Positions 3,070 through 57,833 of a stretch of DNA of 64,000 nucleotides are shown here, piece after piece. Position 1 is the stretch's first letter, and each line of letters begins with the position of its first letter. The stretch covers positions 10,934 through 74,933 of the forward strand of contig JAJCZU010000006.1 of NCBI GenBank assembly GCA_029262235.1, written 5' to 3'. This stretch comes from Candidatus Eiseniibacteriota bacterium. Lineage in GTDB: Bacteria > Orphanbacterota > Orphanbacteria > Orphanbacterales > Orphanbacteraceae. The notes under the pieces are model-generated. The model did not search any database. It worked only from the letters and a program-made list of their open reading frames with translations, and was not told where the DNA came from. A program made the translations under genes and the position numbers.

Positions 3070-3099
3070 TTGACTTGAGGCGGTTCAGAAGTCTATACT
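3070..3099 (+). promoter_or_regulatory. Sigma-70-like promoter candidate for the 3268 gene
   Basis: TTGACT (3070-3075), 18-nt spacer, TATACT (3094-3099), in a 660-bp AT-richer intergenic region; an inverted repeat GGTGAC-N2-GTCACC follows at 3115-3128. Confidence 0.4.
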
Positions 3100-3267
3100 T
3101 CTTTCAACCGTTAAGGTGACGTGTCACCAGAGACGGCCTGAGTGTCAGGGAAGCATTTCAGGCGTGTCTGGCGAGCGGTTCTACGATGGATGGGTCCCCG
3201 GAGTAGATCACGGCACGTATTTTTCAAAGTCAGTTCTCGATAACTGATGGAAGGAGTTCAGAAGAAC

Positions 3268-3801
3268 ATGAAGAAGGCTTTAGTATTAGGCGCTGCTCTG
3301 CTGATGTTCGCTGGTGTTGCCAGCGCACAGTACAGTGTCGAACTTGACCAGAATGCGACGCTGGGCGATGGCCCGGACTTCGCGGCGGCCGTTCCGGCCG
3401 GCGCCGTTGCCATTGATGCTTGGATTACGGGACAGGCGTCCTTCGTCTACTCCGGTAACTTCACGCTCAGCCATGCCGGCCCGGCCACGTGGAATCCGTA
3501 CACGCATGCTACGGGTTGGACGACGACCCCCGATCAGAACCAGGGTGGAAACGACTGGCTCGTCCAGGCGACCGACTTCGGTTTTGGCGGTCTGGTTCCG
3601 CCGTTCCTTCATGGTACGGCCAACTACACGTATGACGGTCCGGTCGGCATCGTGACGGTTTCCGTCGTGCAGCCGAACGGCTGGTTCGACTCGAGCTTCA
3701 CCTCGGGTCCGTTCACGAACAACACCGGCGCGTCCTTCGGTATCGGCGTCACCGCCACCGAAGAAACGAGCTGGGGTGCGGTCAAAGATCTGTTCCGGTA
3801 G
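3268..3801 (+). CDS. Secreted hypothetical protein with conserved C-terminal ...EETSWGAVKDLFR tail (family member 1)
   Basis: RBS GGAAGGA then ATG 3268; signal peptide MKKALVLGAALLMFAGVASAQ; Gly/Thr/Asn-rich mature region; ends TATEETSWGAVKDLFR*; own promoter and terminator. Confidence 0.7.
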   Translation: MKKALVLGAALLMFAGVASAQYSVELDQNATLGDGPDFAAAVPAGAVAIDAWITGQASFVYSGNFTLSHAGPATWNPYTHATGWTTTPDQNQGGNDWLVQATDFGFGGLVPPFLHGTANYTYDGPVGIVTVSVVQPNGWFDSSFTSGPFTNNTGASFGIGVTATEETSWGAVKDLFR

Positions 3802-3830
3802 ATCTGAGACTGGCTTTTGCTAGTTCGAAA

Positions 3831-3861
3831 GGCGGCCTTCTTCGGAAGGCCGCCTTTTTTT
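3831..3861 (+). terminator. Rho-independent terminator
   Basis: GGCGGCCTTC-TTCG-GAAGGCCGCC hairpin followed by TTTTTTT. Confidence 0.8.
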
Positions 3862-3927
3862 GTGCCCGTACTGTTTCCTCTGCCGGCGGCGTCAAGCCCG
3901 GCCGCCCTCGAAATTCCTAATTTCCCG

Positions 3928-3956
3928 TTGACACCCCACGTCCTGATTCCTATAGT
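3928..3956 (+). promoter_or_regulatory. Sigma-70-like promoter candidate for the 4039 gene
   Basis: TTGACA (3928-3933), 17-nt spacer, TATAGT (3951-3956); about 80 nt upstream of RBS AAGGAGA. Confidence 0.45.
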
Positions 3957-4038
3957 AGGCCAGTCTATTTATGTCGTACCAAACCTTCGGGAGAGCGGAA
4001 CGTTTTCCTCAGTTCTACAGGAAAGGAGACGGTCACCC

Positions 4039-4680
4039 ATGAGCGGCCGAATCAATTACAAATCGATGTTCGCGGGGATCGGGTGCGCCCTTCTCTTCAG
4101 TGTTGCGGGCGCTTCCGCTGATGTTTTCATCGGCATGGACGAGGACGCCGACCTCGAGTGCTCGACGGACGAAATGATCAAGAACAGCGCAACGGCCATG
4201 AACGATCAGCAGATCGACATCTTCTTCGAGGGAGATAATCTCTACTCGGCGAATTGCACGTTCTGCATCGAGGACGCGGCGACGATCTCTCTCGACACGG
4301 TCATTGCCACGGTGCCGGGGGCCTGGACCATTACAGATCTGCAGAACTCGGAAGACACTCCGGGTATGTCAGTCGCAGACTGGATCAAGACGGCCTATCC
4401 GAGTTACAAGTGCTGGCTCTTCCAGTCGACGGACTTCTCGTTCGGAAGCCCGATCGGCCCGGGCGCGGTGAAGATCGCCGAAGTGCACTACGACATCTTG
4501 ACGTCGGGTCGCCTCGGTTTCCATATCGACGGCGCGAACAGCGGCTGGTTCACGACGGCATTCGTGTCGGGGTCATGCGCCGAACCGCCGGGGAGCGCCA
4601 CGTGCAAGTGCTTCACGGGCACAGGCGCCACGAGCTCCGAAGAGTCGAGCTGGAGTGCGGTGAAACAGATCTTCCGCTAG
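4039..4680 (+). CDS. Secreted hypothetical protein with conserved C-terminal ...EESSWSAVKQIFR tail (family member 2, paralogue of 3268..3801)
   Basis: RBS GAAAGGAGA then ATG 4039 (the ORF extension from 3817 runs through the upstream terminator and is rejected); signal peptide ...MFAGIGCALLFSVAGASA; shares TDF(G/S)FG and (N)GWF..F.SG blocks with the 3268 protein; ends TSSEESSWSAVKQIFR*. Confidence 0.7.
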   Translation: MSGRINYKSMFAGIGCALLFSVAGASADVFIGMDEDADLECSTDEMIKNSATAMNDQQIDIFFEGDNLYSANCTFCIEDAATISLDTVIATVPGAWTITDLQNSEDTPGMSVADWIKTAYPSYKCWLFQSTDFSFGSPIGPGAVKIAEVHYDILTSGRLGFHIDGANSGWFTTAFVSGSCAEPPGSATCKCFTGTGATSSEESSWSAVKQIFR

Positions 4681-4704
4681 ATTTTGCTATTCTGATTGCA
4701 TGGA

Positions 4705-4736
4705 AAGAGCCTTCCTTCGGGGAGGCTCTTTTTTTA
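4705..4736 (+). terminator. Rho-independent terminator
   Basis: AAAGAGCCTTCC-TTCG-GGGAGGCTCTTT hairpin then TTTTTTT. Confidence 0.7.
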
Positions 4737-4746
4737 TGATGGAGAC

Positions 4747-7119
4747 ATGAGCATGATGCCCAGCAGAAAGCCTTCCGGTTCCGTCAGCCTGCCACGGCGC
4801 GCCATCCGCGCGGCCGTCGCGATCGTGTTCCTGCCCGCGCTGATGCTGTCCGGTGCGGGGTGCGGCGGGGGAGACGACGGACGCCCCCTTTCCCTGATCG
4901 TGATTTCCATCGACACGATGCGGCCGTCGCGGCTCGGCTGCTACGGAAACGATGCGATCGAAACGCCGCACATCGATCAGCTCGCCGCGCGCGGGGCGCG
5001 CTTTACGAACTGCATGGCGAGCGCGCCTCTCACTCTTCCGAGTCACGCCTCGATCCTGACAGGCCAGTATCCGTTCCGCCATCGCGTGCGGAACAACGGT
5101 CGGTACGTGCTGGGCGACGAACGCGAGAGCATCGCGGAAATATTGAAGCACAAAGGATATGAAACGGCGGCGTTCGTCGGCGCGTTTCCCCTGGCCGCGA
5201 AGTTCGGCCTCTCGCAGGGATTCGATCGCTATGACGACGAGTTTCAGGAAGCGATCAACAAGGTGCAGGAATACGAGGAGCGCAGCGCGGACCGCGTGGT
5301 CGACGCGGCGCTCGCGTGGCTCGATGAAAAGGGCGAGGAAGACATGTTCCTGTTCGTCCATTTCTTCGATCCGCATTTCCGCTACGAGCCGCCGGAACCG
5401 TTCCTCACGAAGTACGCGTCGAATCCGTATGATGGCGAGGTCGCGTTCGTGGATCAGGAAATCGGCCGACTGCTTGCCGCACTGCGCGAGAAGGGGATCG
5501 ATCGTCGCGCGTTGATCGTGCTGACGGGGGACCACGGGGAGTCGTTCGGCGAGCATGGCGAGATGTCGCATGCGATCTTCGTCTATGACGCCACGATTCG
5601 AGTACCGCTTGTCCTTTTGTGGCCCGATCGAGTATCGGAATCGATTCCCTGGGCGCGCGGCTCCGTAGTGGACGATCTCGTGCGCACGATCGACATCGCC
5701 CCCACGGCGCTTGCGCTGCTGGAAGCCCCGCCTCTGGCGGAAGCCCAGGGCGTGAATCTGTCCCGGCCCGGAGCACTCGGTACGATCGAGAACGCGTACT
5801 CGGAATCGTTCGCCTCGAAGGAAGACTACGGGTGGAGCCCGCTCCGTTCGATCCGGACGCCCGAGTGGAAGTACGTCATGGCGCCGCGGCCCGAACTCTA
5901 CGATCTCGTGAACGACCCGGGCGAAACGGTCAACCGGATCGACGAAGAGACGGCCATCGCCGAACGCCTTGCCTCGGAACTCCAGGCCTGGGTGACGGAA
6001 GACAAGAGCCGCGGTACGAATGAGGCGAAGCCGCTCGACGATGAAACGCGCGCGAAACTGGAAGCGCTCGGCTATGCGACCCGAGGCGGCAATCCCCGCG
6101 TAAGCGAGGCGGCGCTGCCGGACCCGAAGGACCGTATCGGAATTGCGGACGAGGTGTATGACGCGGAGGGACTCTCGACCGCCGGCCGGTACGACGAGGC
6201 GATCGCGATGCTCGAGGATATCCTGGCGCGGGACGCTTCCAATCACCGCGCCTGGAAGCTGCTCGGGGACGCGTACATGCAGGTCGGCGATCTTGCGTCG
6301 GCCCGCAAGGCTCTCGACAAAGGGCTGGAGACCGAACCGGACAATCCGTTTCTGCTCATCTCCGATGCGCACTTCTATTCGCTGAGCGGCGACTACGACA
6401 CTTCGAACGAAATCCTCCGCGCGGTCATCGCGATGCATCCGAAGCACGAGGGAGTGCACGGATTGATCGCCGAAAACTACATGGCGGTCGAAGACTGGGA
6501 AGGTGCGATCCGCGAAGCCGTCATGGAAACGGAGAAGAACCCGGCTTCCGTTTCATCATGGAACAGTTTAGGTGCGGTCTATTCCCTTTCCGGCGACCAG
6601 GACCGCGCGATCGAAACGTTCCGCCACGCGATCGAAGTCGATCCGACCGACGCGCGGTCGCACTTCAATCTAGGCAACGTCCACATGGACCGGGGAGAGT
6701 CCGATCGCGCGATCGCGTCGTATCAGGAGGCTTTGCGCGTGGATCCGGGCTTTGTCGAGGCCTATCAGAACTGGTCCTACATCGAGGCCGAGGCGGGGCG
6801 CATGGAGAAGGCGGTTACGCTGCTGCAGAAAGCGATTCGCGTCGATCCGACCTACTCGAACTCCTACCTGCTTCTCGGGAACCTGAGCCGGAAGGCGCGC
6901 GCCTACGACGCTGCCATCAAACACTACCGAACCGGCCTTCACTACGACCCGCGCAATCAGGACCTGCTGCTGGGGCTCGGTACGGCGCTGGCCAACACCG
7001 GCCGCCTCGAAGAGGCGATCCCCGCATGGCAGGAAGCGATCGCGATTGCGCCGGGGACGCAGGCCGCGCGCGCCGCGGCGGCCAACATGGCAACCGCGCG
7101 CGCGAGTATGGGAAGGTGA
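4747..7119 (+). CDS. Sulfatase-like hydrolase/transferase (alkaline-phosphatase superfamily, Thr-type nucleophile) fused to a C-terminal TPR-repeat domain; probable lipoprotein
   Basis: Start ATG 4747 (MSMMPSRK...) chosen after the terminator; lipobox-like LSGAGC; PF00884-type N-terminal domain (LIVISIDTMRPSRLGCYGN...PHIDQLAARGARFTN...SHASILTGQYP, later LTGDHGESFGEHG) with no Cys/Ser-x-P-x-R FGly motif; C-terminal ~310 aa are TPR repeats (AWKLLGDAYMQVGDLASARKALDKGLETEPDN etc.). Confidence 0.75.
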   Translation: MSMMPSRKPSGSVSLPRRAIRAAVAIVFLPALMLSGAGCGGGDDGRPLSLIVISIDTMRPSRLGCYGNDAIETPHIDQLAARGARFTNCMASAPLTLPSHASILTGQYPFRHRVRNNGRYVLGDERESIAEILKHKGYETAAFVGAFPLAAKFGLSQGFDRYDDEFQEAINKVQEYEERSADRVVDAALAWLDEKGEEDMFLFVHFFDPHFRYEPPEPFLTKYASNPYDGEVAFVDQEIGRLLAALREKGIDRRALIVLTGDHGESFGEHGEMSHAIFVYDATIRVPLVLLWPDRVSESIPWARGSVVDDLVRTIDIAPTALALLEAPPLAEAQGVNLSRPGALGTIENAYSESFASKEDYGWSPLRSIRTPEWKYVMAPRPELYDLVNDPGETVNRIDEETAIAERLASELQAWVTEDKSRGTNEAKPLDDETRAKLEALGYATRGGNPRVSEAALPDPKDRIGIADEVYDAEGLSTAGRYDEAIAMLEDILARDASNHRAWKLLGDAYMQVGDLASARKALDKGLETEPDNPFLLISDAHFYSLSGDYDTSNEILRAVIAMHPKHEGVHGLIAENYMAVEDWEGAIREAVMETEKNPASVSSWNSLGAVYSLSGDQDRAIETFRHAIEVDPTDARSHFNLGNVHMDRGESDRAIASYQEALRVDPGFVEAYQNWSYIEAEAGRMEKAVTLLQKAIRVDPTYSNSYLLLGNLSRKARAYDAAIKHYRTGLHYDPRNQDLLLGLGTALANTGRLEEAIPAWQEAIAIAPGTQAARAAAANMATARASMGR

Positions 7120-7124
7120 CACGG

Positions 7125-8420
7125 ATGCGATTGAAATGGTTTGCATGCGCATTCCTGGCGCTGGCGGTCTTGACCGCACCGTCCCGGGCCCGGGGGGATG
7201 TCCTTCTGGAGGCGCGACAACTCGTCTTTGCGGGTGATCGCGAAGCGGCGCGCACGCTGCTGGAAGAACAGTTGCGGAAAACCCCCGGCGACCCCGATGT
7301 CCATCTCACGTATGCATTCGTGCGGGGCGCTCTCGGCGAACGCGCCGAGGTACGGTCCGAATACGTGAACCTTCTGCGTGGCGATCCGGACAATCCGATC
7401 TATGCGGTCACGATGCTTTCCGTTTCCCCGCCGTCGCAGTTCGTTACCCGCACGTTCGCCCGACTCCTCGAAAAGAACCCGGAGTTTGCGCCCGGGTGGG
7501 AAGAGTGGGGCCGTTTTCACCTGATCAACTGGAATCCGGCGGAGGCCATTCCGCAGCTCGAGCGCGCCATCGCCCTCGCGCCCGGGCGCACGCGCTCGCT
7601 CCTTTATCTGGGGCTGGCGCACCGCACCCTGGGCGATTTCATGCCGGAGATCCGCTATCTCTCGCAGGCGTTTCAGGCCGATTCGCTCGACGCGCAGATT
7701 CGCGCCGAGTGGGCGTTCACGATTCTCGACCGCGGCGATCCGGCGCTTGCCCTGCGGGTTCTGGAGCCGCTGCTGGGGGGGAGCGTCGAGGACGACTACC
7801 CGTTCGTGATCGCGGCCGCGGCCCACGCGCATCTCGGCGAAACGGCTCTCTCGGAAGCGCGGAAGCGCGAAGCGGAGAGCAGGAATCCGAACCTGCTGCG
7901 CGACATTCTGCATCGCGGCATCCAGTTTCGCAACGTCGCGCAGGGGCGCGAGGCAGAGCGGATGTTTCGCCTCGCGCTCGATCTCGACCCGCACTACGAC
8001 AAAGCCGCCGTACAGCTCGGCATTCTGCTCATGAACCGCGGCCAGTTCGCGGAGGCACGAAAGACTTTCGAAGACCTGGTAGGGACACCGGCGGGCAGGA
8101 CGGACGCCGTGTCATGGAAGCATCTCGGCGTCTGTGCCGCGGAGCTCGGGAAACAGGAAGTCGCGCTGGCGCACTTCGACACGGCCCTCGCGATCGATCC
8201 CGATCTCGTGGCCGCCCGGTCGGAACGTGCCCGGGCACTGACACGGCTCGAGCGATTCGACGAAGCGGCAGACGAATGGGAGCGCGTGATCGATCGGGAT
8301 CCTCTCGGCTGGGTCGCGGCCGAGGCGCGCCGATCGATCAGCCCTTTGCGCAGGGGAGAAGCGCCACCTGCGATCGAGCCGCAGAACGAGGGGATCAAGC
8401 CCCCGACCGGGGTCCGCTGA
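7125..8420 (+). CDS. TPR-repeat protein, secreted/periplasmic
   Basis: ATG 7125 (MRLKWFACAFLALAVLTAPSRARG signal peptide) just after the upstream stop; the 6558..7124 ORF extension overlaps the sulfatase gene in another frame and is rejected; multiple TPR-like helix pairs. Confidence 0.65.
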   Translation: MRLKWFACAFLALAVLTAPSRARGDVLLEARQLVFAGDREAARTLLEEQLRKTPGDPDVHLTYAFVRGALGERAEVRSEYVNLLRGDPDNPIYAVTMLSVSPPSQFVTRTFARLLEKNPEFAPGWEEWGRFHLINWNPAEAIPQLERAIALAPGRTRSLLYLGLAHRTLGDFMPEIRYLSQAFQADSLDAQIRAEWAFTILDRGDPALALRVLEPLLGGSVEDDYPFVIAAAAHAHLGETALSEARKREAESRNPNLLRDILHRGIQFRNVAQGREAERMFRLALDLDPHYDKAAVQLGILLMNRGQFAEARKTFEDLVGTPAGRTDAVSWKHLGVCAAELGKQEVALAHFDTALAIDPDLVAARSERARALTRLERFDEAADEWERVIDRDPLGWVAAEARRSISPLRRGEAPPAIEPQNEGIKPPTGVR

Positions 8421-8517
8421 CGTTTGGCTTGGAAGTTGCAGATCCAGTTCGTATACTGAGTATGAAATCTCCCGCTCACCCCTGCCGAATCCCCGTCAAG
8501 GAAGGCTAACGCAAAGA

Positions 8518-11500
8518 ATGAGAATCGGTTATTGCTTCATCGCGGCGCTTTCCGTGATGTTCCTGATGAACGCCGGCCGAGCCGAGGCCGCGCGCGTGTC
8601 CTCCGATGGGGACGGTTCGGTTACCCTTGTCCTGACACCGGACCGCTATCGAATCGCGGAAACGACGATTCAGGGAGAAACGTTCCGCGAGGTAAGGGGA
8701 CTCGGCACCGGCGTCAGCGCGGGGGGCAGGCCCGACCTGCCGACCCAGGGGTACTGGGTCGCGATCCCGGACGGCATGGAGCCGCGACTTACGATCGTGC
8801 GCACGGACTACGAAGATCTTCCGGGGCCCCCGATTGCGCCGGCGCCGAAGGACACCCTGTTCGGACGCACGCGCGAACCGGGGTTCACGCAGTCGATCGA
8901 CCGCGCGTTCTACCAGACTTCCGCGCTGTATCCGGAGGCGATTGCCACGCTCGGCGAGTTCGAGCGCTTCCGGAATCAGCGCGTCGTTCCCGTTCGTTTT
9001 CATCCGTACCGGACCATGCCTTCGAGCGGAATGCTCCGCATTTATAATGAAGTGGAAGTGCGGATCGACTTCGTTCCCGCACCGGCAGAGAAGCGCGCGG
9101 CGGGCGCGCGTGAGCCGGCACGCGACGAGGCGAAGTGGGAGGGCCTGTACCAGGGCACGATCGTGAACTACGAGCAGGGGCGCGGGTTCCGATCGCGGCC
9201 TGCGAGAACGGGGCAGCAGAGAGCTTCGAAGTCGTCCCGTGTGGAAAACGAGTACAAGCTTTTCATCGAGAAGAGCGGCGTCTACAAGATCCCGTTCGCC
9301 GAACTGAACAAGAAGGGCCTCGCCGGGGGCGCCTCCGTCGACCGGATCTCGATCTACAGGCGCGGCTTCTCCGAACAGCTTCTGCAGGACGACCTGAGTC
9401 CGTTCACCGAGGTGTCGCTGCCCACGCGCGTGCTCGACAAGACGGGCAACGGCACGTTCGAAGACGGCGACACGGTGATTTGCTTCCTGCCCGGGTTTCG
9501 AGAAGATCGCATGGAGCGTGACTTCGAGGATCGGTTTGCGATCGAGGCTGTGTATTTCCTGTCTGTCGAAGGGGAGGCCCGCCCGGCCGCGACCCGGAGC
9601 GCGAACCTCGGCCTCGCGAGTCCGACTTCTCTCACGTCGTTCCCCGACTCGATACGATGGGAGATCGACGTGCAGTACGACGGGAAGTCGCCGACCGACA
9701 CGATCGATCACTATTTCGCGGGCGGAAACCGGATCGAAAGCCGTACGACGCAGATCGAACTCGGCGCCATTGACCCCTCCGTTCTGTTCGGCGTGAAAGG
9801 GATGGTGGTTTCCACCGTATCCGAAGGCTCGGGCGCTCTTCTTTATCACCGGTACCGGCTCGAAACGGCGGGCGGGACCGAGATCTTCAATTATCTGAAC
9901 TTCGGCGAGCGCGCGAATCTTTCGCGCACGGGGCGCGTGCACGACCCTGTTCTGCTTGTCGAGGGTCTGAACAACATTCGCTACTTCGGGTCCCGTGGCC
10001 GCGCGGTTGAAACGACGACGCCGGGAGCGGGGGGGCATCTCGACTGGTACGAGATTCACGCGAACTTCCTGTACAAGGCCCACCAGGGTGCGCTTCATTT
10101 TTCGACGGGGACCGGTTCCGGTCCGGTCGCAATGACCGTGACGGGATTCCCGAGCGCGCAGGTTCATGTCTGGGACGTGACCGATCCGTACGGCGCGAGC
10201 GTGATTGAAGCGGCAGCTACCGGCAGTGGCGGGAACTTCGCGATTACGATCCAGGACACGATCAACGGCGGGCGGCACGCGTACCGTGCGTACGCGGGGA
10301 GCGCGATTCCGGTGCTGAAGAGCGCGAAGATCGTGGCGGATCTGCCGACGAACCTCGCGTCGGCGCAGTCCGATTACCTGATGGTCGCGCACGAGGACTT
10401 CTACGATGCCGTCGCGCCGCTCGAGGAGTACCGCGAGTCGAAAGGGTACACCGTGGAGCGCGCGCGGATCAGCGACGTGTACGACGAGTTCAACGGGGGC
10501 GTGAAGGATCCGGTCGCGATCCGGAATTACGTGCGCTACGGATTTACGGCGTGGGACAAGCAGCCCCTTTTTCTGCTGCTCGTCGGGGACGGTTTCGAAG
10601 ACTACAAGAATCTCGCCGTGAATCGGGGGAACAGCGGCGATGACTTCGATTTCATCCCCGCGTACCCGGGTTATACGCGTCAGATTTTCGGAAGCGGCGA
10701 CAACTGGGACGCCAGCGATCCCTGGTTCGGCTTTCTCGACGGCGACCGGGACGCGCTGCTCGACGTCATCGTCGGGCGCATGCCGGTCAAAACCGCGTCG
10801 GAAGCCGAAATCATCGTCGAAAAGACGATTGCCTACGAAGACTTCTCGCCGAACGACACCTGGCGGAATCGCATGATCTTCATGGCGGACGACCGCTGGG
10901 TCTTCGACTCCGGCTGCATCGAAGACGGGCGTCAGCCGCAGTTCGAATCGAACTCGCGCGTGTTCGTCGAGAACCTGCTCGAATCTTCCGCCCGCGACAT
11001 GGATACGGCGACCATTTATCTGAGCACGTCGACGGATGCCGTTCACGAAATGTGCCCGTGCGCCGCGAACCCCAACTCCACACAGGAAGCCGACGTCGAC
11101 TGCGTGATCGCCGGCGCGCGCGCCACGGTCGGAAAGCGCATGTTCGACCAGTTGAACGGGCCGGGCGCATTGTTCGTGAATTTTCAGGGGCACGGAAACC
11201 GGAATGTGCTGACGCATGAAGTCGTCGTCCGTCAGGGGCCCGACTACAGGAACAACACGTCGAACGATTTCGACGTCAACACGAACAACAAGGGACGCCC
11301 TTACATTTTTGCCGCGTACGGCTGTTCGATCTCCGAATTCGATCGATTTACGTCATTCGGTTACGAGGCGCTGACGGAAGTCATGATCCGGAGCGACAAG
11401 GGAGGCGCGGTCGCGGCGTTCGGTTCAACCGGGATCGAATTCCTTTCACCGAATCTCGCTCTCAACAGTTCGATCCTGAAGTATTTCTATCAGTCTCCCG

Positions 11501-12615
11501 GAATCGTTCCTTCCATCGATGTGAACGGAAGTCCGCCGCCCTGGTACCAGGGTGTTCCGCGCTGGTCGATCGGCGAGATCATCGCGCTCGGACTGAACGA
11601 CTTTGCGGTGCGCAGTCCGCTCGGCAGTCCGGATACGATCCGGCGCTATGCGATCTTCGGTGACCCTGCCCTTATGATGGACGCGTCGATTCCGAAATTC
11701 GAAGTGTTCCTCGACGGCATTCCCACCACGAACGGGGGAGTGGTGACATCCAACCTCGACGGCACGCCCGTCCTCGTGACGGCGCAGGTGCGCGACGAGG
11801 TGCTGATCCCGCGTGATTCGATCGCCGTGTTCGCGGGTGCCGTGGCGCTCGACACGGCGGCTTATTCGGTCATCGCCGATACGACGTGGCAGGAAGGGCA
11901 CGCGTGGAACCTCGCGTTCGAACTCGACCTTGACTCGGACGAGTCCGTGGACTACACGCTGCGCGCGGTCGACCTGAACGGGCGCGTTTCGACGTTCGTG
12001 CTGAAGACGACGGCTGCGATGATCCTGACAGTGGACGGACGCGAACTGGTCGATGGCGCCCTCGTTTCGCCGCGACCGACGATCCGCGCCGAAATCACGA
12101 CTCCGCGGCCCGTGACGGCGAACGAGATCGACATCATGATCGATGGCGTGTCGCTGCTTCTCGACAGCCTCGTCAGCATCGACCAGTTCCGGTGGGTCGC
12201 CGTGGCGCGCCCGACCCTGTCGGGCGGAACCCATACGCTGAAGGTCACCGTGGGGGCGCAGAGCGTCGAATACATGATCCGGGTCGATGCCACGTTCCGC
12301 GTGGCGGACCTGCTGAACTATCCGAATCCGGCCGAAGACGGTACCGGCTTCTACTACGAGCTTACGGACCAGGCCGACGAGGTGTCGATCGAGGTGTTCA
12401 CGGTGAACGGGCGCCGGATCCGCACATTCCGCGACCTCGGCTCGCGCGCGGGCTACAACGAGAACCCTCTCGTCTGGGACGGCACGGACGCGGACGGGGA
12501 TCGCGTGGCGAACGGAGTCTACATCTATCGCCTGCAGGCCCGCCGCGCCGACGACCGGGTCGAAGCGATGGGGAAGGCGGTTTTCCTCCGCACCACCCCT
12601 CCCGAAGACGAATGA
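8518..12615 (+). CDS. Peptidase C25 (gingipain-like cysteine protease) with type IX secretion C-terminal sorting domain
   Basis: 1365 aa; signal peptide MRIGYCFIAALSVMFLMNAGRAEA; central block YLMVAHEDFYDAVAPLEEYRESKGYTVERARISDVYDEFNGG...IRNYVRY...PLFLLLVGDG...FIPAYPGY...DPWFGFLDGD...VGRMPV characteristic of PF01364; C-terminal ~100 aa (YPNP..DG..F.Y........V.I.V....GRR.R.......NGVYIYRL) is a Por_Secre_tail/FlgD-Ig-like domain. Confidence 0.8.
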   Translation: MRIGYCFIAALSVMFLMNAGRAEAARVSSDGDGSVTLVLTPDRYRIAETTIQGETFREVRGLGTGVSAGGRPDLPTQGYWVAIPDGMEPRLTIVRTDYEDLPGPPIAPAPKDTLFGRTREPGFTQSIDRAFYQTSALYPEAIATLGEFERFRNQRVVPVRFHPYRTMPSSGMLRIYNEVEVRIDFVPAPAEKRAAGAREPARDEAKWEGLYQGTIVNYEQGRGFRSRPARTGQQRASKSSRVENEYKLFIEKSGVYKIPFAELNKKGLAGGASVDRISIYRRGFSEQLLQDDLSPFTEVSLPTRVLDKTGNGTFEDGDTVICFLPGFREDRMERDFEDRFAIEAVYFLSVEGEARPAATRSANLGLASPTSLTSFPDSIRWEIDVQYDGKSPTDTIDHYFAGGNRIESRTTQIELGAIDPSVLFGVKGMVVSTVSEGSGALLYHRYRLETAGGTEIFNYLNFGERANLSRTGRVHDPVLLVEGLNNIRYFGSRGRAVETTTPGAGGHLDWYEIHANFLYKAHQGALHFSTGTGSGPVAMTVTGFPSAQVHVWDVTDPYGASVIEAAATGSGGNFAITIQDTINGGRHAYRAYAGSAIPVLKSAKIVADLPTNLASAQSDYLMVAHEDFYDAVAPLEEYRESKGYTVERARISDVYDEFNGGVKDPVAIRNYVRYGFTAWDKQPLFLLLVGDGFEDYKNLAVNRGNSGDDFDFIPAYPGYTRQIFGSGDNWDASDPWFGFLDGDRDALLDVIVGRMPVKTASEAEIIVEKTIAYEDFSPNDTWRNRMIFMADDRWVFDSGCIEDGRQPQFESNSRVFVENLLESSARDMDTATIYLSTSTDAVHEMCPCAANPNSTQEADVDCVIAGARATVGKRMFDQLNGPGALFVNFQGHGNRNVLTHEVVVRQGPDYRNNTSNDFDVNTNNKGRPYIFAAYGCSISEFDRFTSFGYEALTEVMIRSDKGGAVAAFGSTGIEFLSPNLALNSSILKYFYQSPGIVPSIDVNGSPPPWYQGVPRWSIGEIIALGLNDFAVRSPLGSPDTIRRYAIFGDPALMMDASIPKFEVFLDGIPTTNGGVVTSNLDGTPVLVTAQVRDEVLIPRDSIAVFAGAVALDTAAYSVIADTTWQEGHAWNLAFELDLDSDESVDYTLRAVDLNGRVSTFVLKTTAAMILTVDGRELVDGALVSPRPTIRAEITTPRPVTANEIDIMIDGVSLLLDSLVSIDQFRWVAVARPTLSGGTHTLKVTVGAQSVEYMIRVDATFRVADLLNYPNPAEDGTGFYYELTDQADEVSIEVFTVNGRRIRTFRDLGSRAGYNENPLVWDGTDADGDRVANGVYIYRLQARRADDRVEAMGKAVFLRTTPPEDE

Positions 12616-18950: not shown

Positions 18951-19949
18951 ATGAATCTGCAACCGAGATCCATCGCTCTAAGCGCCATTCTTACGGCGCT
19001 CGCTGCGTCCGGACCCGCTCACGCGGCGACCATCGTGGTCAAGGCGGGAGAATCGATCCAGGCGGCTCTGAACGCCGCTCAGCAGGGTGACGTCGTGGCG
19101 GTCGATCCCGGCCACTTCACGGTGAACCTGACCATGCCCGACGGCGTCACGCTTCGCGGCGCCGGGGCCGATTTCACGACCCTCGACGGCGCGGGCGTCT
19201 ACTCCGTGATCCGGGTCCCCGCCAGGGCGGCGCGTGACACGCGGATCGAAGGTTTCCGGATCATCAACGGCAATGCCGAGCGCGGAGGCGGCATCTCGGT
19301 CGGCCTGCTCTCTTTCCCCACGATCTCCGACTGTGAGTTCGTCGGGAATCATGGCAGACAGGGCGGGGGAGTCTATATAGGCGAGGCCGGCGGCGCCACG
19401 ATCGAACGGTGCCGATTCATGGAGAATACGGCTCTGGAAGGCGCGGGCATCTATATCTTCCGCGGACCGGCCACGATTCGTTTCAACACCTTCTGCGGGA
19501 ACGAGGCGGACATTACCGGAGGCGGAATGCACTTCGCGAACACGATCGGCGCCGTAGCTGTCAATAACACGATTGTGCGCAACACGTCGGGGCACGGATT
19601 CGGCTCCGGAGTCTCGTTCGGCGGGAGCCAGGTCGACTTCAGCCGGAACATCGTCGCTTTCAACGAAGGCGGGCACGGGCTGTCGGTCGTCGGCTCCGAC
19701 ATCATCGACGAGTGCAACGTGCTGTTCGAGAATCACGAAGGCGACATGTGCGGCAAGGTACCGGGCGAAACCGACCTGATCGGCGACCCCGGGTTCTGCG
19801 ACCTGAACGACTGTGAATTGTCGATCCAGGGGAACGGCCTCGCGACGAAGATCGACTGCGGCGGATTCGCCGGGGCGATGCCCGTCGGGTGCGCCTTCAC
19901 CGCAAGCGAAACGGTAAGCTGGGGCGAGGTCAAAGCCCTCTTTCGATAA
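18951..19949 (+). CDS. Secreted right-handed parallel beta-helix repeat protein with conserved C-terminal ...ETVSWGEVKALFR tail (family member 3)
   Basis: Signal peptide MNLQPRSIALSAILTALAASGPAHA; repeated beta-helix turn motifs (G.GI....S..TI..C.F..N...GGG, NTIV.N); ends TASETVSWGEVKALFR*; followed by a terminator. Confidence 0.7.
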   Translation: MNLQPRSIALSAILTALAASGPAHAATIVVKAGESIQAALNAAQQGDVVAVDPGHFTVNLTMPDGVTLRGAGADFTTLDGAGVYSVIRVPARAARDTRIEGFRIINGNAERGGGISVGLLSFPTISDCEFVGNHGRQGGGVYIGEAGGATIERCRFMENTALEGAGIYIFRGPATIRFNTFCGNEADITGGGMHFANTIGAVAVNNTIVRNTSGHGFGSGVSFGGSQVDFSRNIVAFNEGGHGLSVVGSDIIDECNVLFENHEGDMCGKVPGETDLIGDPGFCDLNDCELSIQGNGLATKIDCGGFAGAMPVGCAFTASETVSWGEVKALFR

Positions 19950-19978: not shown

Positions 19979-20010
19979 GCCGGCGGCCGGAAACGGTCGC
20001 CGGCTTTTTT
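19979..20010 (+). terminator. Rho-independent terminator
   Basis: GCCGGCGGCC-GGAAAC-GGTCGCCGGC hairpin then TTTTTT. Confidence 0.75.
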
Positions 20011-20170
20011 GTGCCCGCGCGCCATGCTCCATCCGCTCCTGCGCACTTCCTGCCTGCTTCCGGCCAATCTTGACACGCCCTCCGGGCGATGGTACTCTGC
20101 TCGCCCGCAAAACTTCTGTTACGCCCCGTCGAACGGATTCCGGCGGCTCCGCCGCCGCAGGAGGACTACT

Positions 20171-22053: not shown

Positions 22054-22357
22054 GGCCGCGATTTTTTTCTGGAAAAATCGTGCCTGTTCCCACACCGGGA
22101 AGGCGAGAAGGAACGCGTTGAAAACAAAGTAGTTAGAAGGGTGTAAGGGTCTCTTTTCCGGCTCGCAGAGAGCAGCCGGAAGAGCGTGCCCATTACTGTA
22201 TTTTGGCTTAAATGAAGAAACTGCAATCACATAGAAGTCTCAAGGAGGACACGGAGTGGAGAACGACTCGTGGTTACAAAGCGTTATTCCGCTTTTATCT
22301 TTCCGAAGAAGAAAACCTCGCGGGATGACCATATCCCCGCAAAAGGAGGGCTCGAGT

Positions 22358-25300
22358 ATGAGTAGTCGTAGGAAGGGACGACTCAAAACACTCTCCCTGT
22401 TCGCGCTGCTTCTGACTGGAATGCTGTTCGCCCCTCAGGCGGATGCGCTTCCTGAAGTCGGGAGCCTTACGATCAGGGATGTGACGTACGATTCTGGCGC
22501 TGACAGGCTGGATATCGTATTCGACCGTACTGTGTCGGCAGCTGCCGCCACGGACTTCCGTTTTAACGACGGAACCACCTATGCCGGCGGCGCCCCCGTA
22601 ATTTCGGGGCTGCTCGGTAACGTAGTCAGTTTGACGACGTTCTCGACAGCGCCGGTGCCAGGTACCACTACGGTCGCCATCAAGGATTCGCTTGCCGCGA
22701 TCACCGGGTTGGAGATTATTACGGGGAACGCGACGGCAACGCGCGACTTCTCGTTCCACCCGATCGTGACAGGCCCTGTGATCGCTTCGGCGCTCTACAC
22801 GGCTGGTGAATCGGATCTCGATCCTACGAACGACGTCATTACGGTAGAGTTCAATACCGGAGTGACGTTCGTACCGGCGGCTCACGACACCCTGTTCAGC
22901 ATGCCGCAGCTCAAGGGCACGCAGACAATCGGTGATGACGACGGTGACGAGTTCCTCACACTCATCTTCGGTGCTGACGAAACGACGGTCCTCGACTACG
23001 TGTCGACGGTCGGACTCGCGTCGGACATTCTTGCCGGAATGGGCATCCAGGATTCGAACACCGACGAGATGACCTCGCTCACCCGCGTTCGCGTGGGTTC
23101 GGGCAGTGGTGCATTTCCGCTGTACGCTCCCTGGTACGCTGATGCGGGTGGCGTAGGCGGCGGCAACGACCGCTTCTACTATGTGATGAGCGGAGATGTT
23201 TCGTTCAACACGCCCGGCATCGGGATCACCGGTATCACCACGTTCAGTGGCGCTGGTGTGGCCCCGACGTTCAGTGGTGAAGTCTGGTCGACTCCGAACC
23301 GCCGCACGGTCGTCGGTGTCCGGAACGCGCATAAGGACGGCAACTATCTGAGCGCTCCGGTGCTTGGAACTTCGACGCGTCCGACGCTCCCGGTTGATGC
23401 CGATCTCGTGAACGCAACGCTGACCACGGCGGCCGATTCGGCTGATTCGGGGCCGGCTGGCGTGCCGATCGGTTTCGGTCCCGCGATCATCGCCGCTTAC
23501 TGGGATGGCAACGCGGATCAGATCATTCTTTACTTCTCGGAAGGCTTCGGGACGAACCCGGTGGCCGCCGACTTCCAGATCAACGGCGATGTCGCAACAG
23601 GCATCGGCGCGGGCTGGACGCTGGCAACGGTTGCCGGACGTGAAGTTCGCCTGAATGCTCCGGCTGACACGACCTGGCTCGAAGGCGATGTGATCAACAT
23701 CGAAACGACGCCGGTCATGGTCGGCCTTTCGGGTTTCGTGCCCTCGTTCACCGGCGCGGCCGGTACCGTGGACAACGCGATTCCGATTCGCGACGCGACG
23801 CCGCCGTCGAGCAACCTCGCTCTGACGGACCTTCTCGAGCGGAATCCGCAGGATACGCTCTCGCACGGCTTCATCAGCCTGTACGAGAATCCGGATCTGG
23901 ATGTCTGCTATTACCTCATTCTCAGCAAGATCGGGGAAGAGGTTAACAACGGCGACTTCGACACTACGCTCAACGTATGTGGTTCGATTCCCTTCCCGAA
24001 TCCGCAGGGCGTTGACGGCGACACGGCGACGGTCATTATCGACATTACACCGGGTCTGAACGATGCCACCGGAACCGTGATCGCCCAGGGCGACCGCGTC
24101 TTCTTCGGTGTCGCTCCTGTCGACAAAGAAGGGAACATCGGACAGTCGTATCGGGTTCCCGGCTCTCTTGTAGCCGGCCCTGTTGCCTGTCCGCGTGACT
24201 TTATTACGATTGCCGACGACCTTCGTATCAGCCTCGGCGCTGACTCGATCGTCGTTACGGACAACAATATCTGGATCAACGGTCACGCCGACCCGGTGCC
24301 GGACACTCTCGTAGGGGATACGCTCGCTGTCGATCCGTTCGACATCGTCGTCGTCTACCAGGATGCCGCGCTCACGGACTCGATCGCGGCCGGTACTGCT
24401 ACGGACGTCGGATCCTTCGTGATCGGACTCCCGAGCGACGCGGGTGATGCCAACGACTGGATCTACCTGACGTCGCGTGACCAGTTCGGCAACCAGTGCC
24501 CGGGCTTCACGCAGATCCTGAATGATCAGACACCCCCCGCTATCACAAAGCATGGCGATCCGAAGAATCCGTGGGCGATTTACGGCCCCGGCGATTCGGT
24601 TTGCGTCTTTGTTGAGGGCGCGGATACGACCGCCGGCGTCGCGATCGATCAGATCTCGTCGCTCCTGAGCGGTACGGTCGAAATCCTGACGTTCCACATG
24701 CCCCAGGAAATCGTGGCTTCGGCCAGCTTCGTGGCATGGGGTTCGGATCAGACTGACAACGACGGCGACTGGATCTCGGGCGCCGTTGGCGACAGCGCGG
24801 TCTGTGGACCGGCGTATCGCCGTCCGGCCGACACGTGCCGTGTCGGAACGGAAGACTATGCTGAGCCGTATTGCGACGAGAACGGCAACGGGGCATTCGA
24901 CCTCGGTGAGTACTTCGTCGACTACAATGGCAACAAGGTGTTCGACGGCGGTGGCGACTTCAATCTCGACTACCTCGACGCACCGTACACGGGCGACACC
25001 ACCAACATCGGTGGCGAAGGCCCGACCATGCGTCAGGAACTCGCGATGTATAAGGCTTCGTTCGCGAACCTTGACGCCGCTCTAGCGAATCCGGAACCGG
25101 TTCAGTGGCTCATCTGCCGCGTCCGGCTCCTCGACAAGAACGAAAACGAGTCGATTCTTCTCGACACGATCACGTTCGATAATCTCGCTCCGGAACAGTC
25201 GCAGTTCTCGCGCCTCGCGCGTCGTGACTCGTCTCAGTCCGGTGCGGGCAGCGGTAACCTGCTTCCGGATATCGGTGGCACGGCCAACTGCTACACCGTC

Positions 25301-28300
25301 GGTAACTTCGTCGACTTCGACGTCACGACCTACAGTGACTCGCACGACGTCGATTACGTTCTCCTTCAGATCAACACGGGTGGAGGCTGGGGTGACCTCA
25401 ACTTCGACCCGAACGGTGATTTGAATGCGGACGGTCAGCCGGGTAAAGCCGGTATCGATGATGACTTCGATGGCTGGGCGGACACGCTCGACGTCCAGGT
25501 TCACAACGCCATGCAGAACAGCCTTGCGGCTGATGCTGCTGACACGGATTCGACGCCGGCCGCCGGTGACGGGATCTGGGCGCTGAACGACGGAATCGAT
25601 AACGACAATAATGGCGTGATCGATGACGCGACGGACACGACGTACGCTGCCAACTTCATGGACGATGACGACGAAGACGGGATGCTCGACGGTACGACCG
25701 TTTCGACTCTCGACGCTGTCATCGGTGGTGGCTTCGGCCCCGGTGTCAACATGTTCCCGCAGTACCTGCACGTTGCCGGTATTGCCGCGACGGACACCAG
25801 CCTCAATGTTCCGGGTGACGGCTTCAGCGATGAAACCGCCCTTCTCTTCCCGGACATCGGCACGCCGATTCCGCTCACGGGCACGGACGAAGTGTTCGGC
25901 TGGGCGGCGCTGAACGGGTTCAACCTGAACATGCGCATGATCCAGCATCACTACAACATCCCGAACGAAACGCAGTTCAGTCTGCGCGCCGTTCCTTACG
26001 ACACGCGTGGCGGCCGCATAGGCCCGATGTCCAAAGCCGGTGGCGTCTTCGATGACGACATTGCGGCGAACCGGACCGGGAACAGCGACCCGACGAAGGC
26101 GATTCAGATCTGTCTGATCGTCGACACCACGGGTGTTGCCTGCGCGATCGATGTCGCTGCATTCGGTGAGAACACGGGCGCCGACAGTGCGGCCGCTGCG
26201 AACATCGACTACACCGCATGGGATTCGGAAGATTCGACGTACACGTCGCCGGCCGCACCGCTGAGCTACACGCTCACGGCTGCGGGTTCGGGCGCGGAAA
26301 TCGACTCGGTCGTCTTCTACGCGATGATGTGGAATGTCGATCCGGTCGATCCGGACACGTGGCTCGGTACGTGGACGCGCGTCGGTGCTGATTCCGACGG
26401 CATTCCGTACAACACGGACTGGACGGCTCCGATCGTCACGAACAAGCCGTGTGACAAAACGCTTCGTTACTACTTCTACTGCCAGGCCTTCGGCGCGTCC
26501 GGTCTCTTCGAAGAGGCCCTCGCGGATTCCGATACGGCGCTTGCAGAACTCGTAGTCGAGGTCGTGGACCATGTGTTCCCGATCACGAACATCACGAGCG
26601 TGGGTAACGATTACGACCTGACCAACGGTGCGACGGTTCCTGCCGATTCTGCGATCCACATTCGGATCGAAGGTACGGCGGATCTCGACGACCGCGACGG
26701 TCTGGCCGGCTTCAGTGACATTACGAGCATTGAATTCCAGCAGCGTCGTACGAACAACGGCAACAACAGCGCCGGACCGTGGTACACCATCGGTTCGATC
26801 GCGACGCCGTTTGATTCGATGCCGCCGGTTGACGTTGTCTGGCGTACCGATACGCTGACCGCACGGGACTACGATGTCCGCGCGATCGGTATCGACTGCG
26901 AAGGCAACTCGAATATCAAGTTCACGCAGGTCGTGCATGTCTCCATTGACACGCTCGGTCTTCGCGCATACATCGAGCCCCAGGTCTTCGAATCATCAGA
27001 TTCGATCACGCTTACGGCTCAGGTCTTCATTCACGACGAGTCGATTGACAATGTCGACTTCCAGGTATGGCCGGACTCGAATGAGAACTGCCTCCCGGAT
27101 GAAAACATCTCGTGGGTGTCGATCTACAACGACGACAACGACGATTCGTCGAGCGCCGATCCGGGTGGTGATGTCACCCTCCGTGTCGGTAGCGGAACGC
27201 TGTACGAAGTCAGCCAGCTCACGCCGGGTGACAAGTACGTCGACTTCGATGCGGATCACGGTTACATCGACTACGACGGTGACGGCTACTCGCCGATCGA
27301 CCCGGTCGTATGGGATGACAACAGCGACGGCTTCTACGATGAGTCCGATGGTGACACCACCGTGATCGGCCAGGTCGTGTCGACGGGGACGCCTCCGGCG
27401 ATCACGTCGTTCGACGCGGACGAATTCTACGCCGACTACAACACGAACGGTGACCTCGACGACGATGACTGGATCTTCAAAGAAGGTCTCGGCGGCTTCG
27501 AAGCCGGTTCGGATGAGCATCATACGTGGCAGGGCGGCTGGAACGTTGCGGACCTTTCGGGTTCGTGGTTGATCCGGTCGGTCGCGACGGATGAGCTCGG
27601 TAATGTCGACACCGACTCCAATACGGCGATTCCGTACATCTGCTGCGGTCTCGACGTCGATGCGCCGGCCGCTCAGGTCTGCAAAATCGCGATGGGTCTC
27701 GGTGGCTTCTCCTGGTACGACGGCATGCCGGTCGACTCGGTAGTTTGCGGTGACAACGAATGGGTCAAGCTCTGGGCTTGCCTGAACGACTCCGCCGACT
27801 ACGCCGATCTCGACTACATCCGGTTCGAGTACTCAGTTGATAACGTGAACTGGACCGACCTCGACGTGAACGACGACAACGACTTCTATGTCGATATCGA
27901 CGACACGCTCGGGTTCTCGCTCGGCGATGCCATCGTTCGCGATGACTACAGCGCCGACACCACGTTCACGGTGGACGCTTCCGACGTTCTGCTTCGCAAC
28001 GGGATTGCGGGCGACATCAGCGACATCTACGGATATCGCATGTTCCCGCTCTCCGACGAAGACGGCGCCGGTGGTGGTGATGAAGACGGTGACGGCAATG
28101 CGGACGAGGATGACTTCGACGAAGAAGACAGCCGCGATCCGTACTGCGTCTACTTCAATATTCGCGACCTGACGATGAACGACGGTCTTTTCCGCACCTC
28201 GACGCGCGTTTACTTCCGCGCCGTGGCCGTGGACGAGAACGGAAACGAAGACACGGATCCCACGATCACGCAGTTCGTGATTCAGGAAAACGTGGATCCG

Positions 28301-37069: not shown

Positions 37070-37313
37070 TCAATAAGGCTTCGGGGGGGAGCTTGACTCC
37101 CCCCCAAGCCTCTTCATATTCGAGGGCCCGGAATTCACCGTGGCTCTCGAACATGAGGAGGACCTTGATTCTGAGGTTTTCTGATTGGTCAAAGAGGGTG
37201 AGATGAAACAGCGAGTTGATAATAAAAGTCAGAGTGAAATCAGAGAGAGAGTCAAACAGTCGGATGAGTCATTGAAGTACTCATTTGATCCCTATGAGAG
37301 GAGGACCGAGAGA

Positions 37314-44923: not shown

Positions 44924-44990
44924 TTGTGCTCGTCTCTGCGTGCCCGCGCGCGTGATTACGCGCTCGCGCGTTCCGTGGTAGAATGCGCGC

Positions 44991-51049: not shown

Positions 51050-51175
51050 CCCGTGAAGCACCCGGCGGTCGTGGCCTTCACCCTGCAGCGTGTTTACGCT
51101 CAGCTTCCGTCCGCCGATCTGGTAGAGTGGCTGCATACCTTTTCAATCTGAGATACGACATCCGCGGGGGAAAAC

Positions 51176-57697: not shown

Positions 57698-57833
57698 ATA
57701 GGTCGGCCCTTGCGGCCGGCGGTGCGGAAATCAATTGCCCTCCATAAGCAAAGCCCGAGGCCCGGCCGCCCCGGGCTTCCGCATGTCTGGCCAGGGCGGT
57801 TGACGGTTCCCGCGAGCGCGGTAAAATAGCGGC

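Follow-up and report, generated by a model that had tools for sequence, protein, structure and literature searches.

Can a peptide of about 16 residues, placed at the very end of unrelated exported proteins, serve as an address within the bacterial cell envelope? This question is raised by a 64-kb stretch of contig JAJCZU010000006.1 from a Candidatus Eiseniibacteriota bacterium (hereafter the window; G+C content of 62%), in which three genes, called here carrier genes 1, 2 and 3, encode exported proteins that finish on closely similar tails. The original prediction, made from this DNA, had taken the tail for a possible new sorting or recognition tag. Based on the analysis presented here, the tail is, with a likelihood that we place somewhat above even, a lineage-specific and portable C-terminal tag for the sorting or anchoring of proteins exported by the Sec system. 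The sorting role is one that we infer from the sequences; localisation, cleavage and receptor binding are all putative.

The three tails of the window

All three tails were found where they had been predicted, each abutting a stop codon, both in the open reading frame (ORF) listing and in a six-frame scan with a regular expression (Table 1). The loose expression W..[VILM]K..[FYW][RK], applied to all six frames of the 64 kb, matches these three sites and no other. At the DNA level, the motif followed by TAG was observed twice, against an expectation of 0.00 from 100 dinucleotide-preserving shuffles; the third tail has TAA instead.

Carrier 1 is identical (100%) to the called gene P0001 of 177 aa. 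Its ORF opens at 3247, and the start was corrected to the ATG at 3268, which the orthologues and the called gene agree on. The two small carriers are indeed paralogues (BLASTP E = 3e-14, 31% identity); their earlier description as Gly/Thr-rich proved incomplete, as a cohesin-like β-sandwich fold is predicted for them. The third carrier is a parallel β-helix protein (PF13229), as had been proposed, and N-termini of the Sec type are present on all three. Each gene had also been credited with a promoter and a terminator of its own: terminators are present for all three, including that of gene 1, which was not listed by a simple terminator scan and was identified by direct reading of the sequence, and sigma-70-like promoter matches stand before genes 1 and 2; a match of this type upstream of gene 3 was looked for and not found. 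The proteins of the window are also encoded on the Logan assemblies of runs SRR15505512 and SRR15505513.

Distribution and C-terminal position of the tail

One genome from each of 185,579 species was searched with a degenerate DNA pattern that encodes E-x2-[S/T/C/R/W]-W-[GSR]-x-[VIM]-K-x-(NTN codon)-F-R, with only CGN codons for Arg and with no stop required; the pattern is restrictive and the counts are lower bounds. At least 115 stretches were returned, from about 78 species-level assemblies (counted by accession prefix, at least 78 being the lower bound). A stop codon directly follows the tail in 105 of the 121 DNA-pattern matches listed and comes after 1–2 residues in nine more, where about 5% would be expected by chance. 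A loose protein expression finds 145 sites in the same 877 kb: 127 at the very terminus (chance again about 5%) and 15 at most 3 residues away from it. With 142 of 145 sites at or within 3 residues of a C-terminus, the motif is not an internal element of cytoplasmic proteins.

A profile of 33 positions, built solely from the window and its database homologues, was also searched exhaustively against 1.84 billion representative proteins, and gave 196 matches at E≤0.001 (representative clusters). Among the 144 new matches listed, 113 end exactly at the tail, 12 carry 1–3 extra residues, about nine are near-terminal variants, five are false matches of low complexity and one (P0158) is truly internal. 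Although no residue was fixed in this search, the core W-x3-K-x2-[FY]-R stands at the terminus in 125 of the 144 representatives. The motif thus extends well beyond the three genes of the window, to at least 78 species-representative metagenome-assembled genomes (MAGs) and to 196 representative clusters of the protein library. Judged by these sequences, the tail is restricted to the extreme C-terminus.

The data are all drawn from MAGs, in which gene starts are imperfect and so are the taxon labels, which are those of the submitters. The labels of the genuine tails are Candidatus Eisenbacteria, Krumholzibacteriota/-ia, Latescibacterota, 'uncultured Fibrobacteraceae', 'Gemmatimonadetes/-ota' and 'bacterium'. 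Three matches are clearly due to chance (Niastella, Rhodoferax and a Thorarchaeota MAG), and these are the sole matches from unrelated taxa among those listed. Genuine tails are also found on two contigs labelled Verrucomicrobia and Reyranella, labels which may be binning or labelling errors. As far as labelled sequences tell, only lineages of the Eisenbacteria/Krumholzibacteriota type, within the FCB (Fibrobacterota-Chlorobiota-Bacteroidota) group, have the tail.

The same DNA pattern matches two contigs of IMG/VR, both with genuine tails: on L119 (1094–1131) a 272-aa ORF has the end ...EKTSWGNVKGLFR, and on L120 (4240–4277) a β-helix-like protein has the end ...SWSDVKELFRSE. The two contigs may be prophage-borne or misclassified bacterial ones.

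Conservation and level of selection

The consensus of the tail is [PV]-[VT]-x-[VT]-E-x-x-[ST]-W-[GS]-x-[VI]-K-[ASG]-[LMI]-[FY]-R-COOH, and 126 of 127 tails end in Arg. Of the 31 tails that lie outside the DNA-pattern selection, most have an acidic residue at W-4 or beside it (in 18 this is an E at W-4 itself); S/T precedes the Trp in 27 and G/S follows it in 25, and Tyr often takes the place of Phe. Carrier 1 has 12 homologues among 5.8 billion clustered proteins, all from MAGs labelled Gemmatimonadetes or Eisenbacteria. Across the 13 members of this family the tail keeps its E, W, K, F and R without exception and its S and V almost without exception, at overall identities down to 34–40%; the tail is kept in orthologues and distant homologues alike, and its conservation outlasts the divergence of the body.

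Could such a tail be without function, as the remnant of a longer domain of shared ancestry, as a nucleotide element near the stop, or as an artefact of gene calling in MAGs? The sequences are from metagenome assemblies only, and some carriers are fragments or have no detectable signal peptide, points that count in favour of such a reading. The information content, however, is at background (<0.7 bit) upstream of about 16 residues from the end, a boundary that excludes a longer shared domain, and the bodies differ in fold. The codons vary freely as well: Ser is encoded by AGC, AGT and TCN, which are both serine codon families, Gly by all four of its codons and Arg by all four CGN codons (the only Arg codons that the search pattern took), and all three stops occur. 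This synonymous diversity excludes an element of DNA or RNA. The motif recurs, moreover, in about 78 independent assemblies from different studies. A non-functional tail is therefore very improbable in our judgement, and the patterns of sequence variation place the tail under selection at the level of the protein.

Carrier proteins

Concerning export, a Sec-like N-terminus is present in 106 of the 118 complete carriers, as scored by a home-made heuristic of charge and hydrophobicity; the remainder are mostly short fragments. Most carriers are thus signal-peptide proteins, as had originally been stated for the three of the window. Some of them are lipoproteins, with a lipobox and an acidic run after the Cys. 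The median length of the carriers is 230 aa.

The tail had been called a portable module, and its bodies bear this out: after trimming of signal and tail, 109 carriers fall into 52 body clusters that are mutually without BLASTP similarity (E≤1e-5). Most of the 52 representatives match no listed Pfam family. Those that do are single representatives each of Beta_helix, NHL, CHRD, CBM96, FG-GAP, Lamin-tail (LTD), PPC and cupredoxin. In NCBIfam the bodies include choice_anch_W (8e-53), choice_anch_V (3e-23), DNRLRE, spondin, ExeM, ScyF-like NHL, MXAN_6652 and haem/copper proteins, and through their NCBI names several of these families are linked with sorting signals at the C-terminus other than the tail (e.g. 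PEP-CTERM and MYXO-CTERM). The carriers themselves are named 'hypothetical protein' in the databases. By sequence comparison, the extracytoplasmic folds that bear the tail thus number dozens, are unrelated to one another and come with signal peptides; a few of the carriers are lipoproteins.

Two lipoproteins have a modular build. P0158 consists of three fused modules, each of which ends in the motif, and the carrier of locus L012 that ends at 2905 is a two-module version of it. Their internal motifs, e.g. ...SWGKIKGLFY-PAPP... and ...SWSEIKSLFRDEEG..., are the sole genuine internal occurrences found. In both lipoproteins an acidic run comes straight after the lipobox Cys (CGDDDD...), which resembles the surface-lipoprotein export signal of Bacteroidota.

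Relation to the type IX secretion system

We compared the tail with the type-A C-terminal domain (CTD) of type IX secretion systems (T9SS; TIGR04183/PF18962, FlgD_ig-like here). Both stand at the extreme C-terminus of Sec-exported proteins of the FCB group, are portable over unrelated bodies with the same junction in paralogues, end on L-hydrophobic-[RK]-COOH in these genomes and tolerate short extensions; the cargo of the tail is likewise signal-peptide cargo, and the window holds PorU-like, PorV-family and CTD cargo genes (Table 1). The two differ in that the CTD is a folded Ig-like β-sandwich of ~70–100 aa, whereas the tail has ~16 conserved residues, is predicted to be flexible or helical and comes with no extra domain; among the Bacteroidota that the scan sampled, there was no genuine tail. 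A CTD hidden Markov model (HMM) built from 28 neighbouring CTDs matches none of the 121 tail ORFs, and for the three carriers of the window no T9SS or sorting-signal HMM of Pfam or NCBIfam matches on the tail at E≤1. With 8–9 residues past the Trp and no match to a CTD model, the tail is neither a T9SS domain nor a transmembrane segment, in agreement with the original prediction.

The local CTDs end T-[RK]-[KR]-[MLIV]-[VT]-[LV]-[VIL]-[RK] and have only L-hydrophobic-[RK]-COOH in common with the tail; Lys, which is conserved in the last strand of CTDs, is at -4 in the tail, as against -5/-6 in the local CTDs. T9SS CTDs need their last residues for translocation but tolerate short extensions (PMC11285876). 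By analogy, this behaviour parallels the 1–3-residue extensions of the tail, without proving a link.

Tail and CTD also alternate. CTD-ending ORFs number 45, in 37 of the 115 loci listed, and 15 tail-bearing bodies have CTD-bearing homologues. At L006 (5760–7460, + strand) two adjacent tandem paralogues are 70% identical from the signal peptide to the end of the body; one ends ...DDPSPIEQSSWGKVKSLFR, a 13-residue tail core, and the other runs into a T9SS CTD of ~85 aa. Homologues of the β-helix protein of the window in the global database share a ...DPLFC...GC junction, which is followed either by the tail (P0014-16, P0018 and P0025) or by a CTD (P0017, P0021 and P0023). In the sequences compared, the tail is mutually exclusive with the CTD and interchangeable with it at the same junction. 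Because the two alternate in this way, the tail fills the architectural slot of a proven sorting domain.

PorV-family genes accompany some of the tails. At L025, L032, L041 and L054 (four MAGs), a PorV-family gene, the gene of a CTD protein and those of between one and three tail paralogues form a conserved cassette on the same strand, and at L060 and L086 (two Eisenbacteria MAGs) a different tail family has a PorV-family gene divergently upstream. These arrangements are suggestive of the PorV-family gene as a cognate shuttle of the tail, for which PMC12618676 offers a comparison.

Structure of the carriers and the tail

The AlphaFold2 model of carrier 1 has a β-sandwich body with pLDDT >90. 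A Foldseek search of this model against the PDB returned cohesins, the modules with a nine-stranded jelly-roll fold, as all of the top 19 hits and as most of the top 50 (best E = 1.3e-7, TM 0.59–0.75); no Pfam match to a cohesin family was found in carriers 1 and 2 at E≤1. The model of carrier 3 has a confident β-helix body and low confidence for residues 291–332. In both models the tail is a short helix past a low-confidence linker, unpacked against the body (helix pLDDT ~30–50), and the prediction is thus of a short, flexible helix that projects from the folded body. Its helical hydrophobic moments are 0.44–0.68, values which 3–32% of shuffles equal.

A helix of this kind might act with no receptor, as an in-plane anchor in the membrane or in lipopolysaccharide, with W, V/I, L/M and F/Y on one face and K and R flanking it; the C-terminal helix of E. 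coli PBP5/DacA is an example of such an anchor. The short helix of both models, a W1-V4-L7-F8 spacing that suits a helical face, the moments given above and the tolerance of short C-terminal extensions are consistent with this, and among the carriers, which are mostly small single-domain proteins, the cupredoxin and haem-motif proteins would gain from tethering. Tail and PBP5/DacA anchor are alike in being a short C-terminal helix (predicted by AlphaFold2 for the tail) on Sec-exported soluble proteins. PBP-type anchors, however, have ~18 residues, are weakly conserved and are confined to one enzyme family, whereas the tail has 9–10 residues, is near-invariant and occurs on at least 52 families, with an amphipathicity that is not clearly significant. 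Lipid-binding helices are usually poorly conserved, in contrast to the E at W-4, the S/T before the Trp and the terminal core reported above. A helix of only 9–10 residues is short, the conserved upstream E and the linker are left unexplained, and the clean alternation with a bona fide secretion domain indicates a sorting decision. We did not adopt the anchor as our preferred reading because the moment is not convincingly above shuffles (for three of the four sequences tested it does not exceed them), and we regard it as unlikely.

The predicted cohesin-like fold of carriers 1 and 2 draws attention to the gene directly upstream of them (1859–2602, + strand). It encodes a 247-aa Sec-exported protein with two terminal dockerin/EF-hand-like segments, DFNGSGNVNFFDTFKYLPQLNSG and NLNCAPPVNFFDTFQYLPDLNAG; no Pfam match was found for it, even at E≤10, and an orthologue in L030 is 86% identical. 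This protein and the cohesin-fold carriers may be a cohesin–dockerin-like pair in a Gram-negative organism.

The tail itself could be a docking peptide for non-covalent assembly on a surface protein or scaffold, in the style of cohesin and dockerin, giving a surface complex of many enzymes and modules. That carriers 1 and 2 are single cohesin-fold modules, that their neighbour ends in two dockerin-like segments and that the carriers are diverse, small and often in tandem arrays would suit such a complex. The segments are, however, without Pfam support, a candidate receptor domain was not identified, and the proposal overlaps with the sorting reading, from which it differs mainly in the nature of the receptor; its probability is low in our view.

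Proposed role of the tail

In the reading that we favour, a sorting or anchoring tag, the tail would be exposed after Sec export and bound by a dedicated envelope protein. This protein would set the final place of the carrier, which would be retained at or attached to the outer membrane or cell surface, or be passed across. A short semi-conserved linker, [PV]-[VT]-x-[VT], leads into the near-invariant core E-x-x-[ST]-W-[GS]-x-[VI]-K-x-[LMI]-[FY]-R, and the conserved [VT]-E just upstream is a possible processing site. A protein receptor is favoured over generic lipid binding because W, K, F/Y and R are near-invariant and the tail is close to the free C-terminus, and because the helical hydrophobic moment is unremarkable. 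Roughly half of the weight that we give to a sorting tag goes to a reader that belongs to the T9SS or hands over to it, e.g. a PorV-family shuttle paralogue, a link supported by lineage, T9SS context, equivalence of slot and the shared L-hydrophobic-[RK] ending.

The possible cleavage dipeptide [VT]-E can also be accommodated by a tail that controls maturation or turnover and not location, namely a pro-segment or degron for a periplasmic S41 protease of the Prc/CtpA kind, bound through a PDZ domain. Pre-D1 loses a short extension at its C-terminus to CtpA, the recognition of C-terminal peptides by PDZ domains is well established, and the strictly C-terminal position and flexible linker of the tail are in line with it. 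Proteases of the Prc type prefer non-polar C-termini, whereas the tail ends in Arg, and the 1–3 residues that follow this Arg in ~10% of cases go against a strict reading of the carboxylate. Why enzymes, binding modules and redox proteins from more than 50 unrelated families should share such control is also not obvious, and the swap with T9SS domains and the choice-of-anchor carriers would be left unexplained. We consider this account improbable.

Several points weigh against a sorting tag, and above all against one that is read by the T9SS. The T9SS signals studied to date require a folded Ig-like domain of ~80 aa (PMC11285876), which a tail of 16 residues cannot supply. Tandem paralogues that keep both signals suggest two destinations rather than a shared route, and the PorV-like gene of the cassettes is equally explained as serving the adjacent CTD protein. 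In the T9SS-bearing Bacteroidota sampled by the scan there is no genuine tail, the sole match, Niastella L047, being a stop-interrupted chance one. No gene family was found consistently beside the tail genes, the best neighbours being present in at most 9 of the 115 loci. The helical amphipathicity of the tail is moderate and not above shuffled controls for three of four sequences, the AlphaFold2 helix has a pLDDT of only ~30–50, and the carriers are all from MAGs, with the imperfect gene starts and taxonomic labels that this entails.

A further possibility, tentative and clearly short of even, is that the tail defines a new envelope sorting pathway of uncultured phyla in the FCB group (Eisenbacteria, Krumholzibacteriota and relatives). 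Such a pathway would operate alongside the T9SS with a reader or processing enzyme of its own, and the exchange of a ~16-residue tail for a domain of 80 residues would direct paralogues to two different destinations. To our knowledge, this would be the first bacterial case of a very short, non-membrane-spanning, receptor-read signal at the extreme C-terminus of Sec substrates.

Comparison with other C-terminal signals

The original prediction did not recognise the tail as a described signal, and neither did our searches: no model of Pfam or NCBIfam (release 20, June 2026) matches the tail, no sorting-domain model is among the families listed for the 52 carrier representatives, and no paper on it came up when the literature was searched in full text for the motif or for sorting signals of these phyla.

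The tripartite signals (LPXTG/sortase, PEP-CTERM/exosortase, GlyGly-CTERM/rhombosortase and MYXO-CTERM) are, like the tail, lineage-restricted, portable and C-terminal, with a short signature motif before a more hydrophobic stretch and a terminal basic residue; the tail also shares with them 'choice-of-anchor' body families, dispersal over the genome and frequent tandem paralogues. They differ from it in having a transmembrane helix of ~20 residues and a basic cluster, where the tail has 8–9 residues after the Trp, an invariant Lys and a single terminal Arg. The NCBIfam HMMs of tripartite sorting signals do not match the tail, and a cognate sorting enzyme was not found for it by neighbourhood clustering of 8-kb loci.

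In concept the tail resembles the peroxisomal targeting signal PTS1 (-SKL), read by the TPR domains of Pex5, and KDEL, read by its own receptor: all are very short, near-invariant, strictly C-terminal and non-membrane-spanning, and are borne by many unrelated cargoes. They belong to another domain of life and another compartment and differ in sequence; there is no homology and the likeness is one of analogy only. The analogy implies a protein receptor for the tail.

The β-signal of outer-membrane proteins, read by the BAM machinery, is likewise a short motif at the C-terminus of envelope proteins exported by Sec, with hydrophobic residues close to the terminus. It was rejected as an identity, as a β-signal ends in an aromatic residue and is borne by a β-barrel, whereas the tails end almost without exception in Arg and their carriers have soluble folds; a genuine PorV-family barrel from the tail loci ends ...TVTIEF, unlike the tail. 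Type I secretion signals have no N-terminal signal peptide, an unstructured C-terminal signal of ~50 aa and often RTX repeats. A type I signal was also rejected, since the carriers are Sec-signalled and no RTX family is among their Pfam and NCBIfam bodies. For the T9SS CTD, the tripartite sortase/exosortase signals, the β-signal and the type I signal alike, the defining features are not present in the tail.

By analogy, the tail is most like PTS1/KDEL in concept and like the Haft-type 'choice-of-anchor' signals in its genomic behaviour. In our reading it is a previously undescribed C-terminal signal of the sorting-signal kind, with a substantial chance that it marks a new pathway.

Search for a partner gene

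For the neighbourhood clustering, 2,933 ORFs from 115 loci of 8 kb were used. No consistent partner, in the sense of a co-distributed processing gene, was found in these loci. Beyond the CTD proteins, the recurrent neighbours are tetratricopeptide repeat (TPR) proteins (nine loci), histidine kinases (seven), ABC ATPases (six), sigma-54 regulators (six) and PorV-like barrels (six). The lack of a fixed neighbour is typical for sorting systems with genome-dispersed substrates. A PorU-like gene was found near tail genes only in the window and at L014, among the loci examined. The sulfatase-family protein with TPR repeats that follows carrier gene 2 was considered as a partner and rejected: homologues are present in five other tail loci, no denser than in the window.

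Implications

Earlier C-terminal sorting signals have repeatedly led to machineries (sortases, exosortases, rhombosortases and the T9SS), and a sharply defined new signal usually means an undiscovered reader. The tail marks a distinct class of the secretome, spread over at least 52 unrelated families in candidate phyla with no cultured members, and would allow its carriers to be annotated as proteins of the envelope or surface. For phylogenetic profiling towards the partner machinery, an HMM of the last ~16 residues is a precise handle, and the tandem pair of L006 is a natural swap experiment. If the tail is linked to the T9SS, systems of that type can recognise a signal that is five times shorter than the folded domain accepted so far; a tail independent of the T9SS represents a new pathway. 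Given a suitable host, the tail is also a compact candidate tag for surface display.

Other features of the window

The positions of the tails, the carrier genes and the other features discussed are presented in Table 1.

Table 1. Features of the 64-kb window; positions are counted from its first nucleotide
Feature	Position	Strand	Description
Tail 1	3751–3798	+	TATEETSWGAVKDLFR; stop TAG at 3799–3801 directly after
Tail 2	4630–4677	+	TSSEESSWSAVKQIFR; stop TAG directly after
Tail 3	19899–19946	+	TASETVSWGEVKALFR; stop TAA directly after
Carrier gene 1	3268–3801	+	177-aa exported protein; predicted cohesin-like β-sandwich body and C-terminal tail
Sec (SPI-type) signal peptide, carrier 1	3268–3327	+	MKKALVLGAALLMFAGVASA, followed by QY; sequence reading and crude hydrophobicity/charge score; kept by homologues
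Sigma-70-like promoter match, gene 1	3070–3099		Upstream of gene 1
Intrinsic terminator, gene 1	3829–3861	+	12-bp GC-rich stem, TTCG loop, T-run; direct sequence reading
Carrier gene 2	4039–4680	+	213-aa exported paralogue of carrier 1, with whose family it aligns; matches called gene
Sec signal peptide, carrier 2	4039–4119	+	MSGRINYKSMFAGIGCALLFSVAGASA, followed by DV; sequence reading
Sigma-70-like promoter match, gene 2	3928–3956		Upstream of gene 2
Intrinsic terminator, gene 2	4711–4735	+	Terminator scan and sequence
Carrier gene 3	18951–19949	+	332-aa exported parallel β-helix protein, PF13229
Sec signal peptide, carrier 3	18951–19025	+	MNLQPRSIALSAILTALAASGPAHA, followed by AT; sequence reading
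Intrinsic terminator, gene 3	19979–20014	+	11-bp stem with 10 GC pairs, then T-run
Sulfatase-family protein	4696–7119	+	C-terminal TPR repeats
PorU-like C25 peptidase (T9SS sortase family)	8290–12615	+	1441 aa; own FlgD_ig/T9SS type-A CTD
Giant protein	22235–37069	+	T9SS-type CTD at end; ORF of 4944 aa, called gene on Logan contig of 4903 aa
PorV/PorQ-family barrel fusion	37185–39005	+	Barrel, TSP3 repeats and OmpA domain; directly after the giant protein gene
Second sulfatase-family protein	44982–46769	+	
Protein with canonical T9SS type-A CTD	51152–53068	+	TIGR04183 3e-8, FlgD_ig; alternative signal in the same genome

The PorU-like gene starts 3.6 kb downstream of the tail genes. Its product contains the domains Propeptide_C25 and Peptidase_C25 (Pfam, 1e-68) and scores 290 bits against the NCBIfam model of PorU (NF033707), under the equivalog cut-off of 420 bits. 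The barrel fusion matches PorV_fam of NCBIfam with 95 bits (cut-off 90) and OmpA of Pfam. A protein of 391 aa (57825–59000, + strand) has a weak similarity to clostripain (C11 peptidase), with 52.6 bits in NCBIfam, which is far below the cut-off.

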